Positions 4,766 to 11,104 of a DNA stretch of 13,194 nucleotides are shown here, one piece after another. Positions within the stretch are counted from its first letter, which is position 1. The number at the start of each line of letters is the position of its first letter. The position numbers and the translations under genes are program-made. The stretch is taken from positions 1 through 13,194 of the forward strand of contig JAYTHP010000119.1 in the NCBI GenBank assembly GCA_043732485.1, in the 5' to 3' direction. Under the pieces are notes generated by a model that was not told where the DNA came from, did no database searches, and was given only the letters and a program-made list of their open reading frames with translations. The stretch comes from Oligoflexia bacterium. Lineage in GTDB: Bacteria; Bdellovibrionota; UBA1018.

Positions 4766-5281
4766 ATGAAATCCCGCCCTACCGAATCATCTCTACGACT
4801 CACGAGGACTTCCCAAAACACCAGCATGGTTGCAGCACTCTCGCTTGCGGCTGTGACCCTTTTGAGCTCCGTTCAGTGCACCCAAAAACCTAAGGAGTCG
4901 CAGCAAGCTGCAAACGACTTCGCAACCCAATCCCTTATCCCCACCCCCGAGAAAGTCCCCGACAATATGCACATTAAAGACAAAGTCGTTGGCACCGGTC
5001 CCGAAGCCGTCCTTGGTAAAACCGTCAGCGTCCAGTACACCGGAACAACCGGCGGCAAAGAATTTGATTCTTCTAGGCACTCGGGGCTGCCCTTTACCTT
5101 TAAACTGGGCCAAGGCCAAGTCATTCCCGGCTGGGAAAAAGGCATCCCAGGCATGAAAGTGGGCGGCATCAGGTTACTGACCATCCCACCGGAGCTTGCT
5201 TACGGTGCAAGAGGGCATAGCAACGTTATCCCACCGAACGCCACTTTAGAGTTTGAAGTGGAATTGGTTAAAGTTGAATAG
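4766..5281 (+). CDS. FKBP-type peptidyl-prolyl cis-trans isomerase with N-terminal signal peptide (possible lipoprotein)
   Basis: V.YTG, FDSS, F.LGQGQVIPGWEKGI.GMKVGG.R.L.IPPELAYG and IPPNATL.FEVEL. Hydrophobic leader ending SSVQC. Confidence 0.96.
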   Translation: MKSRPTESSLRLTRTSQNTSMVAALSLAAVTLLSSVQCTQKPKESQQAANDFATQSLIPTPEKVPDNMHIKDKVVGTGPEAVLGKTVSVQYTGTTGGKEFDSSRHSGLPFTFKLGQGQVIPGWEKGIPGMKVGGIRLLTIPPELAYGARGHSNVIPPNATLEFEVELVKVE

Positions 5282-5645
5282 CGTTTTCAAAGCACTCATC
5301 CAACGCCTAGCCTCAACACAACAATTAGATCTGATTGTGGCCACCTTTTATCAAACGATGGCGCAAGACGTGGTGATTGGATTTTTTTTTGATCCAACAA
5401 AAATTGAGCTCATCGCCCACCAACAGGTTCAATTCTTAAAATTTGTGGCGGGATTGATCCAGAAGTTTGAGGGTAAGGCGCCGAAGCAAGCCCATCAGCC
5501 CTTACCACCGATCTTGCTAGGTCATTTTAACCGCCGGATGATGCTCTTAGAATCGACACTACAGCAATTTGATCTCTCGCAAGAGGAAAGCAAGGCGTGG
5601 CTCAATTTTGAACGGGGGTTTCAAGGGGCTTTAGTGCAAAGCTAG
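5274..5645 (+). CDS. Truncated (2-on-2) haemoglobin, group I-like
   Basis: V..FY (B9/B10), D..I..FF (CD1), Q..FL (E helix), AH (proximal His F8) and HF in helix G; about 120 aa. TTG start at 5274 is inferred; the ORF is open from 5253. Confidence 0.78.
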   Translation: MNSVFKALIQRLASTQQLDLIVATFYQTMAQDVVIGFFFDPTKIELIAHQQVQFLKFVAGLIQKFEGKAPKQAHQPLPPILLGHFNRRMMLLESTLQQFDLSQEESKAWLNFERGFQGALVQS

Positions 5646-5744: not shown

Positions 5745-7160
5745 TTACAAAGCCGGCGCCGTACCTGAGCCCCCACTCTCTGAGCTCGCGCTGGCCACTT
5801 GCGACTGGTAAACAATCTTCAAGCAGGCCATGATTTTGCGAAATTGGCTGGCCTTGTATTTTTCGCGGTTCGCTTCCAGAAACTGATTGATTTGAAACTG
5901 CTCTGGGCCATCGCGAAAGATGGCGCTGGTCACGTCGTGGGCTACGATGAAAACGCAAGAAAGTGGCGCAATATGACTGTAGGTTAAGCCCCGGGGAAAT
6001 CCCGAGCCATCGGGACTTTCATGGTGCTGACGAATGATGGTATCAACATCGGGCGGCACCTCAGACATCTTTTGCACCATATCGCCGACCGTCATGGGAT
6101 GCTGTAAAAAGTCATGGATCTCTTTTTCGGTAAACTGAGCGCGCTTAGCTTCTAACTGCTCACGCGTGGTAATGGCAGTTAAAACATCGTTTTCCAGTGA
6201 AATGTCGTGCAAAAAAGAAGCTAAACTCAGCTTATAAAAGGTGGTATTCGATCCCCACTCCATCTGCCCTGCAATGGCACACGACAAATACGCACAAAAC
6301 ACCGTATGGGCCGAGAGGTAATTTTCGCTGTTTTTCTTCAGCTTATCGATCAACTCTTTTAAGCGCGGTGCCTTGGTCATCACCTTCAAACTTAAATCGA
6401 CATGGGTACGAGTAATTTTTTGGACTTCCTCGGTAAAACCAATCTTATTGACCAACTCCTGCACGGTCTCTTGCACCGATTGCTCAAGCTGCAGCTGGCT
6501 CTCTAAATCGGTCTCCTTGTTCTGCGGTTGCTTGATCAACTCGGAGCGATACTTGGAGATAAACTCCGTACACAAGCTTTTACTAATATAAAGGTAAATC
6601 ACCCCTTTTTGCGTGGTGTATTTCTCTAAATCCTTCAGATCAAAGACATCGCCCTTGCCAAAGAGCCTGATGTACTTATTTTCTGACAAACGAATAAAAA
6701 CATCCCCTTCCAGGGGACTGACCGACAGCAGCAGCTTGGTCTTCACCTTAATATAATCCAAATCAGTGCACTGGGTGGGTAAACCCAAGGCGACAGAATT
6801 TTTTTGACCTTCTAGCTCGCGTAAGTCCTTCAGCAGCTGCTCGAGAAAGAACTTAGGCTCTAGCACCGCCTTGAGTGGCACCAAGGCCGCCTTGAAGACT
6901 TGCACTAAAGCGTGATTGCCTCCCGTCATCAACACCGGAACCCCTTCAATCGCCCGGCAGAAGGCTAGCGCCTCAGCTCCTGCAGAACTTGCCAGCGCAT
7001 CCACAGCAATTAGATCAAAGATCACAGCAGCACTTCTTAAGGCCAACATGGCTCCAGAAAAATCTCCGCAGGCCTTCACGCTAAACCGCGTGCTCGATTC
7101 AATCACAAAGACCGTTTTCTCTAAGACTTCTGAGCGATCGCATAAGAGTAGTAGATTCAT
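5745..7160 (-). CDS. HD-GYP-family protein (degenerate motifs) with N-terminal receiver-like region
   Basis: LHDI, HP and HHESPDGSGFPRGL motifs. N-terminal MNLLLLCD...FDLIAVD...VPVLMT resembles a receiver fold. ATG at 7160 preferred (AAGGGGA upstream) over the TTG at 7307 used in the ORF track. Confidence 0.85.
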   Translation of the reverse strand: MNLLLLCDRSEVLEKTVFVIESSTRFSVKACGDFSGAMLALRSAAVIFDLIAVDALASSAGAEALAFCRAIEGVPVLMTGGNHALVQVFKAALVPLKAVLEPKFFLEQLLKDLRELEGQKNSVALGLPTQCTDLDYIKVKTKLLLSVSPLEGDVFIRLSENKYIRLFGKGDVFDLKDLEKYTTQKGVIYLYISKSLCTEFISKYRSELIKQPQNKETDLESQLQLEQSVQETVQELVNKIGFTEEVQKITRTHVDLSLKVMTKAPRLKELIDKLKKNSENYLSAHTVFCAYLSCAIAGQMEWGSNTTFYKLSLASFLHDISLENDVLTAITTREQLEAKRAQFTEKEIHDFLQHPMTVGDMVQKMSEVPPDVDTIIRQHHESPDGSGFPRGLTYSHIAPLSCVFIVAHDVTSAIFRDGPEQFQINQFLEANREKYKASQFRKIMACLKIVYQSQVASASSESGGSGTAPAL

Positions 7161-7319
7161 ACGGATGGTTGTCCCCTTTTTTGCAAAAAACTGGACCTCT
7201 TTCGCCTCAGGCGCCCCCGCGTACTCTCTTACACCTTGTGGCATGATGAGTCCCCTGACCCGCCCGTCAGTGAGAAAGAGCGAAGCGGGCGCCTGCTGCG
7301 CAGTCAAGCAGACCTAGCC

Positions 7320-8465
7320 TCAAACGAAATTGCCCCTTTTTATTTTCTCAACAATAATTTTTTCAGGCATGGTCGGGTCTCGCGGATTGACCGTAAAAAA
7401 AGCCTGTTGCTCACAACGTCGCTTATTCTTCAGCAACCAGTTCAAAATCTCAGTACAGCCACGATTTCTTTTATCTTGAAAGAAAGGGTCATTTTTCAGG
7501 GCGTCTTGCGCCTTCTTTAACGCTCGCACCTCCTGTGCATCATTTTCCTTCACCGGATAGTCATTAAGATCATATTTGGCAATATCCTCCGGCAGCACCC
7601 CCAAAAAACGCACATCAGGCGCCGAGAAATCAGAATTGCGAATCAGGCTCGCAGCCGATCCCGCCTTCAGAGTGCGAAAAATATTTTGCATGGTGTAAGC
7701 GTCAAGGTCACCAAAAAAATACAAGGGGACATTCAGTTGATCTTGGATCAGCTTACACCAACCACGCACGGCGTTCGAAGGAACCCCCTGCGCGCCGAGT
7801 AAAATTGAAGCATGTCGCTTGGTAAACCCATTGGCCACCAAGGTATTGGCCGTACCTTCTGACTCGACAATCAAACAAAAATCAATCTTGCCGCTAGTCG
7901 ATAATTTCAAGTTCTGTGGCCGATTCTTCGGTTGAAAAGGCGTGGTCCCTAGCTTCGACAAATCCACTACCGCTTGATCGCCATCCGGCAGCGTTTCCGT
8001 CACAATCAACTGCTGCGAGTAGGTCTGTCCACCGCGATCGTTGGCATAACAGTTCAGCTCTTCCCGGTAACACTCAAGCATCTCACAAATAAAATCAATC
8101 GTTTCATCTGAAGCATCTTGATCCTCAAAATCCAGCGGCCTTAACTCCGGATCATGCTTAATCTCACCCTTACTAATATAGTAGAGTTCGCGCTTCGTAT
8201 TGACCGCTCCGGTATCAATGTTACGCAATATGATCTCCAACATGAAAATAGCCCGCGACATTTTCTTCACCGAGCTGACGTTCAGCTCGGTGGCCACTTT
8301 CTTATCGCCCGGCGTTAAATATCCTAACTTGTGGTTATAATTAGCATTATCTAAGGAGCATTTGGTGGCGTAAAGAATAGGGCGCTTGGCACGCTCAAGA
8401 TCTGAGAGTAAACGATGACACAGGTTTTTACTCAAAAGCGGTATGGTTTTTTCTTTTCCAATCAT
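7320..8465 (-). CDS. top6A: DNA topoisomerase VI subunit A (Spo11/Top6A family)
   Basis: Winged-helix TKRELYY catalytic Tyr motif, TOPRIM acidic motifs VESEG and GDLD, G.P....R, FLGV.P.DI..Y.L and C-terminal EQQA. 381 aa, 25 nt downstream of top6B. Confidence 0.93.
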   Translation of the reverse strand: MIGKEKTIPLLSKNLCHRLLSDLERAKRPILYATKCSLDNANYNHKLGYLTPGDKKVATELNVSSVKKMSRAIFMLEIILRNIDTGAVNTKRELYYISKGEIKHDPELRPLDFEDQDASDETIDFICEMLECYREELNCYANDRGGQTYSQQLIVTETLPDGDQAVVDLSKLGTTPFQPKNRPQNLKLSTSGKIDFCLIVESEGTANTLVANGFTKRHASILLGAQGVPSNAVRGWCKLIQDQLNVPLYFFGDLDAYTMQNIFRTLKAGSAASLIRNSDFSAPDVRFLGVLPEDIAKYDLNDYPVKENDAQEVRALKKAQDALKNDPFFQDKRNRGCTEILNWLLKNKRRCEQQAFFTVNPRDPTMPEKIIVEKIKRGNFV

Positions 8466-8490
8466 AAATCAATTTTCAACTTTCTCTCAC

Positions 8491-10137
8491 TTAAGCCTTC
8501 ACCAGTGCTTGCTGCTGAGCCTCTAATTTTTCCTGAGCGCGGTTCAGTTCACTTTCCGTCTCGCTCGCATCTCGCCCCAGCAACTTGACTAAGCCTTCTT
8601 CCGCTTTTTTCTTGCGCTCAGGCGAAGCCTGGATAATGCGACACAAGCCGTTCACCAGAATCGGGCAAAACTGCTCAATATGCCGCATCTTTTCTTCGAG
8701 CTCATTGGCCTTGTCTTCCCGCCTAATGTGCTTGGATAGTTTTTGTCCCGCCTGAATCAAAGCCCGCCTGATCTCCTCCACCAGCTCTTCTGAGGCATCG
8801 ATCGTTTCTTTAGAAGCATTTTTAAATTTAATAAACGGCGAAACCACGCTCACAGCGATAATATAGGGCCCTTGCGGCAAGGAATTCTTCGGCTGCACCA
8901 AACCATAGGAGCGCCATTGCACTGACTCGATCGCATGGACAATCGCACAAGACGAGCGATCAAATTGCAAGGGCACACGGTTGGCAAAGCGCAAGACCTG
9001 CACCGCCGACTCCGCCTCAACCGCCCGATTTTCCAACCGCGCAATCCCCACCTCAATCTGCACCGGCTTAAAATCACAAATCGCAGGCTTACGCGTCACC
9101 ACCGAGAAAAAATCCACCGCCCCTAACCGCTGAATACTCTTGGCAAACCCGTCTTCACCGATGGACAAGACCGACTTAGTGGAGGGCGCCATCAGTTTGA
9201 CGTTTTGCAGCCCCACGAACAGGGCTTTAAACTCAATCTCGTTCAAGGAATCGACAAACTTCTCTAAAATCGCAGCCGCAAGGCCAGTTGCCACCAACTC
9301 CGCAAGCACGCTGTCTTGAATGCGCGAGAAACCTTTTTTAAGCCAAACTTTGACCTTCACCTTACCAAACAGGTGAGAATGAGCAATAAATTCGCCCAAC
9401 TTCATAGTATGCGGATGCGGCTCAGTGGCTTCCGGGATCTCAGGCATCACCGAACTCACCCGCTCAATCACGGTTTGCAGCTGGTCGGGGAGCTGATAGC
9501 TCAACTGTAAATGCGGATTCACCAGTGCGGTGGCCGTAAGGTAATTGATCAGCCCAGCTTCCCCGTTCAGTTGCGCTCGGCCATCGACTAGAAACTCAAC
9601 ACACGTGCCATGAGGACGATCCCAAACGATCATCTCTTTTTCTTTAACCACCCCTTGGTTGTTCTTAATATCGACTTCCACCCGACAAGAAAGCGCTTTT
9701 TTCATCTCCTGGGTTTTGGTCTTGACTTGCACCCCGCTTGCGCTCGTCAGCTGCGCCCAGGTGGTCGCCGCCGAAATCCCAATCCCCTGCTGCCCACGGG
9801 AACACCGGCCGCGACCAAACTTGGAAGACGCTAAATACTCACCAAAGACCTTGGGGACATCCTCGATACTAATGCCAGGACCATTATCAGAGACTAATAC
9901 CCGGATTTGATCGCTATTTTTTAACGATCCCGGACCTTTCTTCTCCACCTCTACCCGCAAATCAGGCAAAATGTCGTTTTCTTCACAGGCATCCAGCGCA
10001 TTATCCACCGCTTCCTTCAAAGTGGTTAAAATTGCTTTAGTTTGTGAGGAAAAACCGACTTGTTGCAGGTTCTTGGAGAAGTACTCAGCGGTGCTGCTGG
10101 TGGAAATCTTTTGCGACGCGGGTGTTAGTTTAGCCAT
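8491..10137 (-). CDS. top6B: DNA topoisomerase VI subunit B
   Basis: S.AEYF.KN...GF N-terminus, GHKL motifs EAVDNALDACE, DNGPGI, SKF and RGQQGIG, NPH, PHPH, RFANRVPL, WRSYGL and transducer Lys in FKNASKE. Confidence 0.97.
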   Translation of the reverse strand: MAKLTPASQKISTSSTAEYFSKNLQQVGFSSQTKAILTTLKEAVDNALDACEENDILPDLRVEVEKKGPGSLKNSDQIRVLVSDNGPGISIEDVPKVFGEYLASSKFGRGRCSRGQQGIGISAATTWAQLTSASGVQVKTKTQEMKKALSCRVEVDIKNNQGVVKEKEMIVWDRPHGTCVEFLVDGRAQLNGEAGLINYLTATALVNPHLQLSYQLPDQLQTVIERVSSVMPEIPEATEPHPHTMKLGEFIAHSHLFGKVKVKVWLKKGFSRIQDSVLAELVATGLAAAILEKFVDSLNEIEFKALFVGLQNVKLMAPSTKSVLSIGEDGFAKSIQRLGAVDFFSVVTRKPAICDFKPVQIEVGIARLENRAVEAESAVQVLRFANRVPLQFDRSSCAIVHAIESVQWRSYGLVQPKNSLPQGPYIIAVSVVSPFIKFKNASKETIDASEELVEEIRRALIQAGQKLSKHIRREDKANELEEKMRHIEQFCPILVNGLCRIIQASPERKKKAEEGLVKLLGRDASETESELNRAQEKLEAQQQALVKA

Positions 10138-10328
10138 AGCTGTCTTGAATACAACCAGAACTCAAGCCAATTTGTCAAGAAAGGCCTGAAGTAAAGTGCA
10201 ATCTTTCTCAAAAAAGCCAGCAGAAGCGGGTGTTAAGGGGTCCACCCTGAAAACAGAAATTAAGCTTGATTTCAAGTGCTTAGGACAATAAATCTTATTT
10301 TTTTATTCATTTTTTCAGCCAGCCACCT

Positions 10329-10454
10329 TCATGGGAGGTTTTGAGCCGGTTTTGAAACCAAGGCCTGACGCCCCACCTGACGTCCAAGGATAGCCATTGA
10401 TTTGTCCCCAGGAAGTGAGGTAGCCTCCTTAGGACCGCCAGCAAAACCCCATGA
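10329..10454. other. 126-nt nested inverted-repeat element (candidate structured RNA or MITE-like remnant)
   Basis: Outer arms TCATGG-GA-GGTTTTG (10329-10343) and CAAAACC-CCATGA (10442-10454). Inner arms 10377-10396 and 10421-10441. Confidence 0.4.
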
Positions 10455-11104
10455 CACAAAACCCTGCTTCCTCCATCCGCATCAAACTTAGCCCGTCCTA
10501 CTGGAAACACGCAAGTTGCGTGCCCTTTTCTGAGGATGTCATCCCCTCGAGTTTGTTCTTAAAAAACCGTCATTTCTTGATTATCGATATCGAAACCCAG
10601 CAACTTGCCCAGGAAGTGGGAGGCTGGGAGAACCTGCATCGCTTAAAAATCTCAGTGGCTTGCGCCTATGATAGTCAAACCGAGCAATTTTTGACCTACC
10701 GGGAGTCTGAGCTAGGACAGCTGATCCAGCTGTGTGAAAAGCGGTTGGTGATTGGCTATAACATTCGGGGATTTGACTTACCGGTGCTTGCGGCTTACGG
10801 CTTAAAACTCAAGCCTCTGGATATCTTTGACATCATGTATGATCTGGAATCGCTCACCCGCCAGCGCTTTTTGAAACTGGAGGCGGTGGCGCGCGGCACG
10901 CTGGGGACCGGTAAATCAGCCGATGGACTGCTGGCAGTTGCTTGGTGGAAAGAAGGCAACGTTCAAAAGATTATCGATTATTGTTTGCAAGACGTCCAGG
11001 TGACGAGGGATGTCTTTGAATTTGGCAGAAAAAATGGCTTCGTGAAAATTCAGCGCTCCGAGGACGCGAGCAAGATTAGCCAAATCGCTGTGCAATGGAA
11101 CTAG
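10451..11104 (+). CDS. Stand-alone RNase H-like DEDD 3'-5' exonuclease (RNase_H_2 / YprB-MrfB-like domain)
   Basis: ExoI IIDIETQ, ExoII GYN...FD.PVL and ExoIII YC.QD. The true start may be downstream, e.g. TTG at 10553. Confidence 0.88.
   Translation: MTQNPASSIRIKLSPSYWKHASCVPFSEDVIPSSLFLKNRHFLIIDIETQQLAQEVGGWENLHRLKISVACAYDSQTEQFLTYRESELGQLIQLCEKRLVIGYNIRGFDLPVLAAYGLKLKPLDIFDIMYDLESLTRQRFLKLEAVARGTLGTGKSADGLLAVAWWKEGNVQKIIDYCLQDVQVTRDVFEFGRKNGFVKIQRSEDASKISQIAVQWN

Follow-up and report, generated by a model that had tools for sequence, protein, structure and literature searches.

What does a topoisomerase VI (topo VI) gene pair of archaeal type do in a bacterium, and how did it come to be there? 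The question is raised by top6B and top6A, which lie on contig JAYTHP010000119.1 (assembly GCA_043732485.1; the whole 13,194-nt stretch analyzed is referred to as the window) of an Oligoflexia bacterium, a member of the Bdellovibrionota. Our answer, which we hold at a probability of roughly 0.7, is that the pair encodes an intact, vertically inherited topo VI that likely acts as a dedicated decatenase replacing topoisomerase IV (topo IV), with gyrase supplying negative supercoils; we infer both its strand-passage activity and the decatenation role. The genes and the central catalytic residue are:

8491..10137, minus strand: top6B, 548 aa, with a GHKL ATPase domain, an H2TH-like helical region (~aa 245-311), a transducer domain and a long stalk helix.
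7320..8465, minus strand: top6A, 381 aa, with a winged-helix domain (aa 67-138) and a Toprim domain (aa 196-360).
8178..8180, minus strand: codon of Top6A Tyr96, the likely catalytic tyrosine according to alignment with Methanocaldococcus jannaschii Top6A; invariant in 108/108 sequences.

The preliminary description of this DNA, made from the letters alone, had reported an intact, full-length, co-oriented top6B-top6A pair 25 nt apart, and the open reading frames (ORFs) and family matches agree. top6B is upstream of top6A, and the two ORFs are distinct, i.e., they encode separate A and B subunits. Top6A matches the Pfam families TP6A_N (PF04406, E = 2.8e-14) and TOP6A-Spo11_Toprim (PF21180, E = 2.2e-36), and Top6B matches HATPase_c and Topo-VIb_trans (PF09239, E = 9.5e-45). 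Against NCBIfam models, Top6B passes NF003218 (511 bits; cut-off 274), while Top6A scores slightly below the cut-offs of NF003335 (389 vs. 424) and TIGR01052 (378.3 vs. 380.7). Sequence matches in the PDB are exclusively to topo VI subunits (4/4 for Top6A, 5/5 for Top6B), and the top 15 listed Foldseek matches of a Top6B structure model are all Top6B. This model is modest (mean predicted local distance difference test score, pLDDT, 69.5; predicted template modeling score, pTM, 0.44; TM ~0.4 to Top6B) and supports the domains rather than their arrangement. The H2TH domain has no separate Pfam match, and its presence between the GHKL and transducer domains is indicated by alignments with 2Q2E and 2ZBK that continue through the region and by helices modeled at 247-311 (pLDDT 80-89 across most of it).

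The residues expected of an active enzyme, which the preliminary description had listed as retained, could all be located. Top6A has the motif R92-E-L-Y95-Y96 and the Toprim residues E201 and D253-x-D255, and Tyr96 pairs with the second tyrosine of the M. jannaschii motif, which we take to be the catalytic Tyr103. Top6B carries the ATPase motifs E42-x3-N46-x2-D49, D84-x-G86-x-G88 and G115-QQ-G118-x-G120, and its transducer has a WKxY-like motif (W408-R-S-Y411) and the switch Lys443. Among the full-length sequences recovered at 110 loci and in the window (108 Top6A, 67 Top6B), R92, E93, Y95, Y96, E201, D253 and D255 of Top6A are unchanged in 108/108, and 67/67 Top6B sequences retain E42, N46, D49, D84, G86, G88, G115, G118 and G120 as well as W408, R409, Y411 and K443.

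The pair is no isolated oddity of one genome. Top6A occurs in 59/61 genomes of the host's family and order (40/40 of the high-quality ones), and the best 80 of 393 relatives in genome_contigs are 76-91% identical; their record labels, which are loose, are mostly Oligoflexia, Bacteriovoracaceae, Bdellovibrionales and metagenome-assembled genomes of Bdellovibrionota. top6B lies directly upstream of top6A in 79 of 80 named loci. Synonymous sites are saturated (proportion of synonymous differences, pS, 0.77-0.89), while the nonsynonymous proportion (pN) is 0.07-0.11 for Top6A (6 pairs) and 0.15-0.16 for Top6B (5 pairs); the pair is under strong purifying selection. In a quick tree of 74 rows, built without bootstrap, Top6A falls in a 22-row clade (Shimodaira-Hasegawa-like approximate likelihood ratio test, SH-aLRT, 99) with a family, f20, whose proteins are by name the topo VI of Bdellovibrio bacteriovorus and Pseudobdellovibrio; the stem of the clade is very long (1.71 + 0.57 changes per column). 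With the B. bacteriovorus proteins, Top6A shares 70% and Top6B 64% identity. Because of the family- and order-wide presence, the synteny, the saturated synonymous sites and the tree placement, the pair is an old, vertically kept core gene pair belonging to the already published B. bacteriovorus clade. It is thus ordinary for the phylum rather than a stray archaeal import; the word ‘domesticated’ in the preliminary description was well chosen, and the reduced novelty it had foreseen for membership in a characterized bacterial clade applies.

The role of the enzyme was approached through the company it keeps. In the host genome (completeness 89%, contamination 0.24%) there is a single GyrB match and a single GyrA, the latter in complementary halves on two contigs and with a GyrA-box; no second type IIA pair was found. 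We extended this comparison to 251 genomes of the phylum (250 of at least 90% completeness, plus the host). Topo VI is encoded in 175 of them (Top6A in 173, Top6B at contig ends in 2 more) and lacking in 76, and the distribution of Top6A is nearly all-or-none by family. The earlier statement that topo VI is only sporadic in bacteria therefore does not hold inside the Bdellovibrionota, where it is the rule.

In none of the 175 topo VI genomes did we find a native second type IIA enzyme or topo IV. Five of them, including G237 and G060, have extra GyrB/ParE matches. That of G178 is a single gyrB interrupted by a frameshift, that of G161 a fragment where the contig ends, and that of G119 belongs to a second gyrase, which has a GyrA-box and lies on a contig of 8.6 kb. 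In G237 (L161, G237:C1:1062552-1064531) a GyrB N-terminal half is joined to a domain resembling an S-adenosylmethionine-dependent methyltransferase (motif recognized by eye), with no Toprim domain and no second GyrA. G060 (L163/L169, G060:C4) has a single-chain topoisomerase II of eukaryote or giant-virus type (frame of 1089 aa); the contig, 188 kb long and placed in a bacterial bin, is probably a viral contaminant. Extra GyrA/ParC matches occur in 10/175 genomes; six represent a single gyrA split into pieces, one lies below the cut-off, and three are in G060, G119 and G144, the last being a frameshifted gyrA of 64% GC. In a further genome (G020, L242:586-6051), gyrB lies within an 1822-aa frame carrying intein-like motifs.

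The 76 genomes without topo VI are different: 64 have a second type IIA enzyme (61/61 Bacteriovoracaceae and 3/3 of family f15) and 12 have gyrase alone. The last group comprises 10 genomes of 0.9-2.2 Mb (families f17, f19, f24 and f34), G168 (97% complete) and G134 (450 contigs). Counted by family, 28 have topo VI only, 2 a second type IIA enzyme only, 4 neither and 0 both (Fisher p = 0.027, with kin not independent). A GyrA tree leaves its deep nodes unsettled as to the direction of change (topo VI lost vs. never acquired). The searches are sensitive enough, since they detected the very divergent Bacteriovoracaceae enzyme. Replacement of topo IV is the likely role because topo VI was never found alongside a second type II enzyme native to the genome and because the main family lacking topo VI has a divergent type IIA enzyme; such a complementary distribution fits the prediction of a shared cellular slot. 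The preliminary description had proposed that topo VI may supplement or replace topo IV and had suggested surveying parC/parE and gyrA/gyrB; of its two options, replacement fits better with one gyrB-gyrA pair in the host and no native second enzyme in 175 genomes, and supplementation fits less well.

By analogy to the archaeal enzyme, the subunits would assemble into an A2B2 tetramer. ATP would close the Top6B gate and the stalk would open the Top6A dimer, with the G-segment probably bound along the stalk/WKxY and H2TH surfaces, as described for the archaeal enzyme (PMC5922973). Tyr96 and the Toprim metal site would cut one duplex, and a second duplex would pass through the break before resealing. 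Top6BA would in this way unlink daughter chromosomes while gyrase supercoils them.

The enzyme that stands in for topo VI in the Bacteriovoracaceae is itself unusual. This family (f21) was identified through proteins that exactly match those of Bacteriovorax stolpii and Halobacteriovorax marinus. All 61 genomes encode orthologs of one second type IIA A subunit (63-100% identity; frames of ~470-497 aa, one cut by a contig end). In the four inspected, its gene follows the B gene, and the protein has no C-terminal pinwheel and no GyrA-box. Two examples of the pair, whose A subunit has ~477 aa, are:

L164:5062-8600 (G149): Bacteriovoracaceae type IIA B-A pair, chromosomal.
L165:5387-8991 (G067): Bacteriovoracaceae type IIA B-A pair, chromosomal.

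The B subunit has a Lys/Ala-rich tail, and the neighbors of the pair encode IHF, MerR, a polyprenyl synthase and PilM. Replacement in place at the top6 locus was considered and is not supported, as these neighbors differ from those in the window and the IHF and PilM matches of G000 are on other contigs. Databases label the enzyme ‘DNA gyrase subunit A’, and it scores far below all Gyr/Par NCBIfam cut-offs (A, best 187-189 vs. 654; B, 309-313 vs. 740; Chlamydia-length model, 105-107 vs. 598). In quick trees, sampled without Chlamydia and spirochaete ParC, the A subunit falls outside all sampled cellular GyrA/ParC, including a Bacteroidota ParC-like protein (SH-aLRT 100, stem 1.44), and also outside a phage and eukaryote group (SH-aLRT 95). 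Its only near-length homologs in the best 120 of 790 matches are close relatives. The enzyme may represent an undescribed cellular type IIA lineage, and we found no description of it in the literature, with subscription papers (e.g., Forterre 2007, Gadelle 2014) outside the scope of the search. A phage origin is possible. Atlas look-alikes of the B subunit tie (viral cluster 0.99, Bacteroidota ParE clusters 0.98), and a scan of viral contigs with the A subunit gave no match. PHROG scores were discarded as evidence of phage origin, with control ParC proteins scoring 416 and 500 bits vs. 361-367 for the Bacteriovoracaceae enzyme. In family f15 (L168, L239, L240), 3/3 genomes, all small, have a second gyrase-like pair with no GyrA-box, likely an independent topo IV-like paralog.

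One feature missing from the preliminary description complicates the picture of an ordinary strand-passing enzyme:

9553..9582, minus strand: non-basic loop, Top6B aa 186-195, at the position of the KGRR DNA-crossing sensor of Methanosarcina mazei.

M. mazei KGRR aligns to N191-G192-gap-E193 of Top6B, so that the loop is not basic. The consensus in the clade is G-R-x-Q-L-x-G-[ED]-[AG]-G, with E/D193 in 67/67 sequences, and the B. bacteriovorus protein has the same loop. Arg187, four residues ahead of the loop, is invariant (67/67). The C-tail of Top6B is 25 aa here vs. a median of 68 in relatives, many of which are Lys-rich there (46/80 tail rows are at least 50 aa). Arg187 or the Lys-rich tails of relatives may compensate for the loss of KGRR. 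The tails of L024, L025, L029, L034 and L070 contain short Gln-x-x-Phe/Leu words like sliding-clamp motifs; as a candidate such a motif was rejected, the loose pattern occurring in 8/80 tail rows (5 plausible) with none convincing in the window protein.

What is already published both supports and qualifies the proposed role. Seventeen bacterial families with topo VI, including that of B. bacteriovorus, are listed in PMC11302465, which reports that topo IV is missing from topo VI bacteria outside Pseudomonadota and Terrabacteria and puts forward decatenation as the role of topo VI. The same paper gives topo VI plus gyrase and no topo IV for B. bacteriovorus, and mentions unpublished work in which M. 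mazei topo VI complemented an E. coli parE(ts) strain. We found no biochemical study of any Bdellovibrionota topo VI (the subscription papers named above being again outside the scope), and the parts seen of PMC9665070, PMC9752973, PMC11390915 and PMC12642874 contain nothing on topo VI distribution in the phylum.

Several observations weigh against topo VI as the replacement for topo IV. Beyond the Bdellovibrionota, 7 of the 17 topo VI bacterial families also have topo IV (PMC11302465), and PMC11318664 lists ‘Top IV (Bd0005)’ for B. bacteriovorus; we read the latter as an annotation of gyrA, because there is a single GyrA/ParC match in 31/31 genomes of that family. Since 12/251 genomes have gyrase only, a second type II enzyme cannot be an absolute requirement. 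The exclusion pattern rests on few independent events, and setting aside the extra copies in G060, G119 and G144 as contaminants is our judgement, based on the type of sequence, the GC content and the size of the contigs. Finally, KGRR, which is essential for strand passage in M. mazei (PMC5922973), is not kept.

The alternative that best withstands these data, though we consider it unlikely, is that the enzyme is active but chiefly removes supercoils, either as a counterweight to gyrase or in the service of a compact predator chromosome, with decatenation left to gyrase. The 12 genomes that manage on gyrase alone, the coexistence of topo VI and topo IV in other families and the altered sensor loop all suit it, as does PMC11318664, which mentions Bd2864 and, giving no data, ties topo VI to chromosome architecture. 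Relaxation as the main task leaves unexplained, however, why 61/61 genomes of the large topo VI-less family carry a type II enzyme without a wrapping domain, and why a second type IIA enzyme of native origin is missing from every topo VI genome.

That the loss of KGRR has changed the mechanism itself, such that the complex binds or cleaves DNA without strand passage and is drifting toward a Spo11-like function, seems to us quite improbable. M. mazei mutants in which KGRR is changed to AGAA or EGEE cannot relax DNA or pass strands (PMC5922973), the loop here reads N-G-E, and the long stem of the clade would suit such a drift. Spo11 partners of the TopoVIB-like type have no H2TH and often no ATP motifs (PMC11302465, PMC9665070), whereas Top6B of the window keeps the ATPase boxes, the switch Lys, WRxY and the H2TH-like region, and the compensation suggested above for Arg187 and the Lys-rich tails could make KGRR dispensable.

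Recent horizontal import, carriage as mobile cargo or chimeric assembly with archaeal DNA has next to no chance of being correct: the lower GC of the region (48.9% vs. 53.6% for the genome) and a top6A third-codon-position GC within the lowest 2.5% of long ORFs are set against codon adaptation typical of the genome (71st and 84th percentiles), even contig depth (~15-17x in two read runs that may be the assembly source), plasmid records with only haloarchaeal matches of 24-26% identity and a single viral-contig match on a 482-kb contig, and recent import or chimerism is refuted by the core distribution, synteny and tree placement.

Comparison with known systems places the dedicated topo VI decatenase proposed here closest to that of B. 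bacteriovorus (Bd2864 and its neighbor; Allen & Maxwell 2024, PMC11302465), which shares the clade, the B-then-A order, the non-basic loop and gyrase without topo IV; the host here belongs to a different order of the phylum, and its Top6B lacks the long Lys/Thr-rich C-tail. Archaeal topo VI (M. mazei 2Q2E/9O0G, S. shibatae 2ZBK, M. jannaschii Top6A 1D3Y) has the same domains and catalytic residues at ~25-35% identity, but with KGRR replaced and WKxY reading WRSY in the window proteins. M. mazei Top6B is longer (621 vs. 548 aa), and its extra C-terminal domain is reported absent in bacterial enzymes (PMC11302465). Topo IV (ParC/ParE) likely does the same job, decatenation, with a type IIA fold, and topoisomerase VIII is a single-chain, plasmid-borne type IIB enzyme (PMC5922973), while here two genes lie among chromosomal core genes. 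A second, unrelated topo VI type is found in family f22 (L172-L176) of the same phylum. It shares the B-A operon, the presence of gyrase and the lack of a second type IIA enzyme, but is 31-34% identical, forms a separate clade, retains a basic RGRQ/KGKQ loop (5/5) and has basic N-terminal arms on Top6B; it is likely a separate acquisition.

The surroundings of the pair are bacterial, as had been noted from the sequence. Pfam identifies ExbB, ExbD, HD_5, FKBP, HAD, pyruvate dehydrogenase E1 alpha and RNase_H_2-like proteins, and no integrase or transposase family was matched among the 13 window proteins scanned (3/13 without any family). Window neighbors recurring near top6 among the 80 loci are FKBP (29), a 130-aa ORF (22), HAD (13) and the HD protein (5). 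The individual genes are:

5745-7307, minus strand: HD-domain protein directly 3' of top6A; the TTG listed as its start lies 13 nt from the top6A stop codon, but translation may really begin at the ATG at 7160.
5253-5645, plus strand: the 130-aa ORF, without a Pfam match, overlapping the end of the FKBP gene; its pattern presumably resembles a truncated globin.
10451-11104, plus strand: gene for a stand-alone protein of RNase H fold that resembles 3'-5' exonucleases; it is oriented divergently from top6B and occurs near top6 in 3/80 loci.

A promoter-like element precedes top6B:

10149..10178, minus strand: TTGACA (10178-10173), an 18-nt spacer and the -10-like word TTGTAT (10154-10149), 11 nt before the top6B ATG.

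Upstream of top6B, 35/65 loci have TTGAC-N-(17-19 nt)-TT[GC]AAT-like words, with a perfect -35 and a -10 with T rather than A at position 2, by a pattern that was defined after viewing the data and with close kin counted separately. The putative promoter suggests a leaderless top6B transcript, because in 29/35 loci sharing it the start codon is just 6-7 nt past the -10 word. A consensus promoter scanner did not detect the window element, a scan for promoters and terminators was near chance (6 vs. 3.1 and 5 vs. 3.9), and the -10 word is not enriched genome-wide (4/825 TTGACA sites have it at a spacer of 18, and control spacers give 2-9).

Taken across the phylum, these data could describe a natural swap of enzymes in the decatenase slot, for which we see about even odds: most families would use a fast-diverged topo VI that passes DNA without KGRR, the Bacteriovoracaceae a chromosomal type IIA enzyme without the C-terminal domain from the phage/eukaryote side of the tree, and f15 a duplicated gyrase minus the GyrA-box. 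The function of topo VI in bacteria is posed as an open question in PMC11302465. The census makes it testable in culturable predators, by comparing B. bacteriovorus (topo VI and gyrase) with Bacteriovorax/Halobacteriovorax (gyrase and the divergent type IIA enzyme). If the enzymes are truly interchangeable, type IIB and type IIA topoisomerases can fill one cellular slot, and the altered loop would mean that topo VI also has a way of sensing DNA crossings that does not depend on KGRR.

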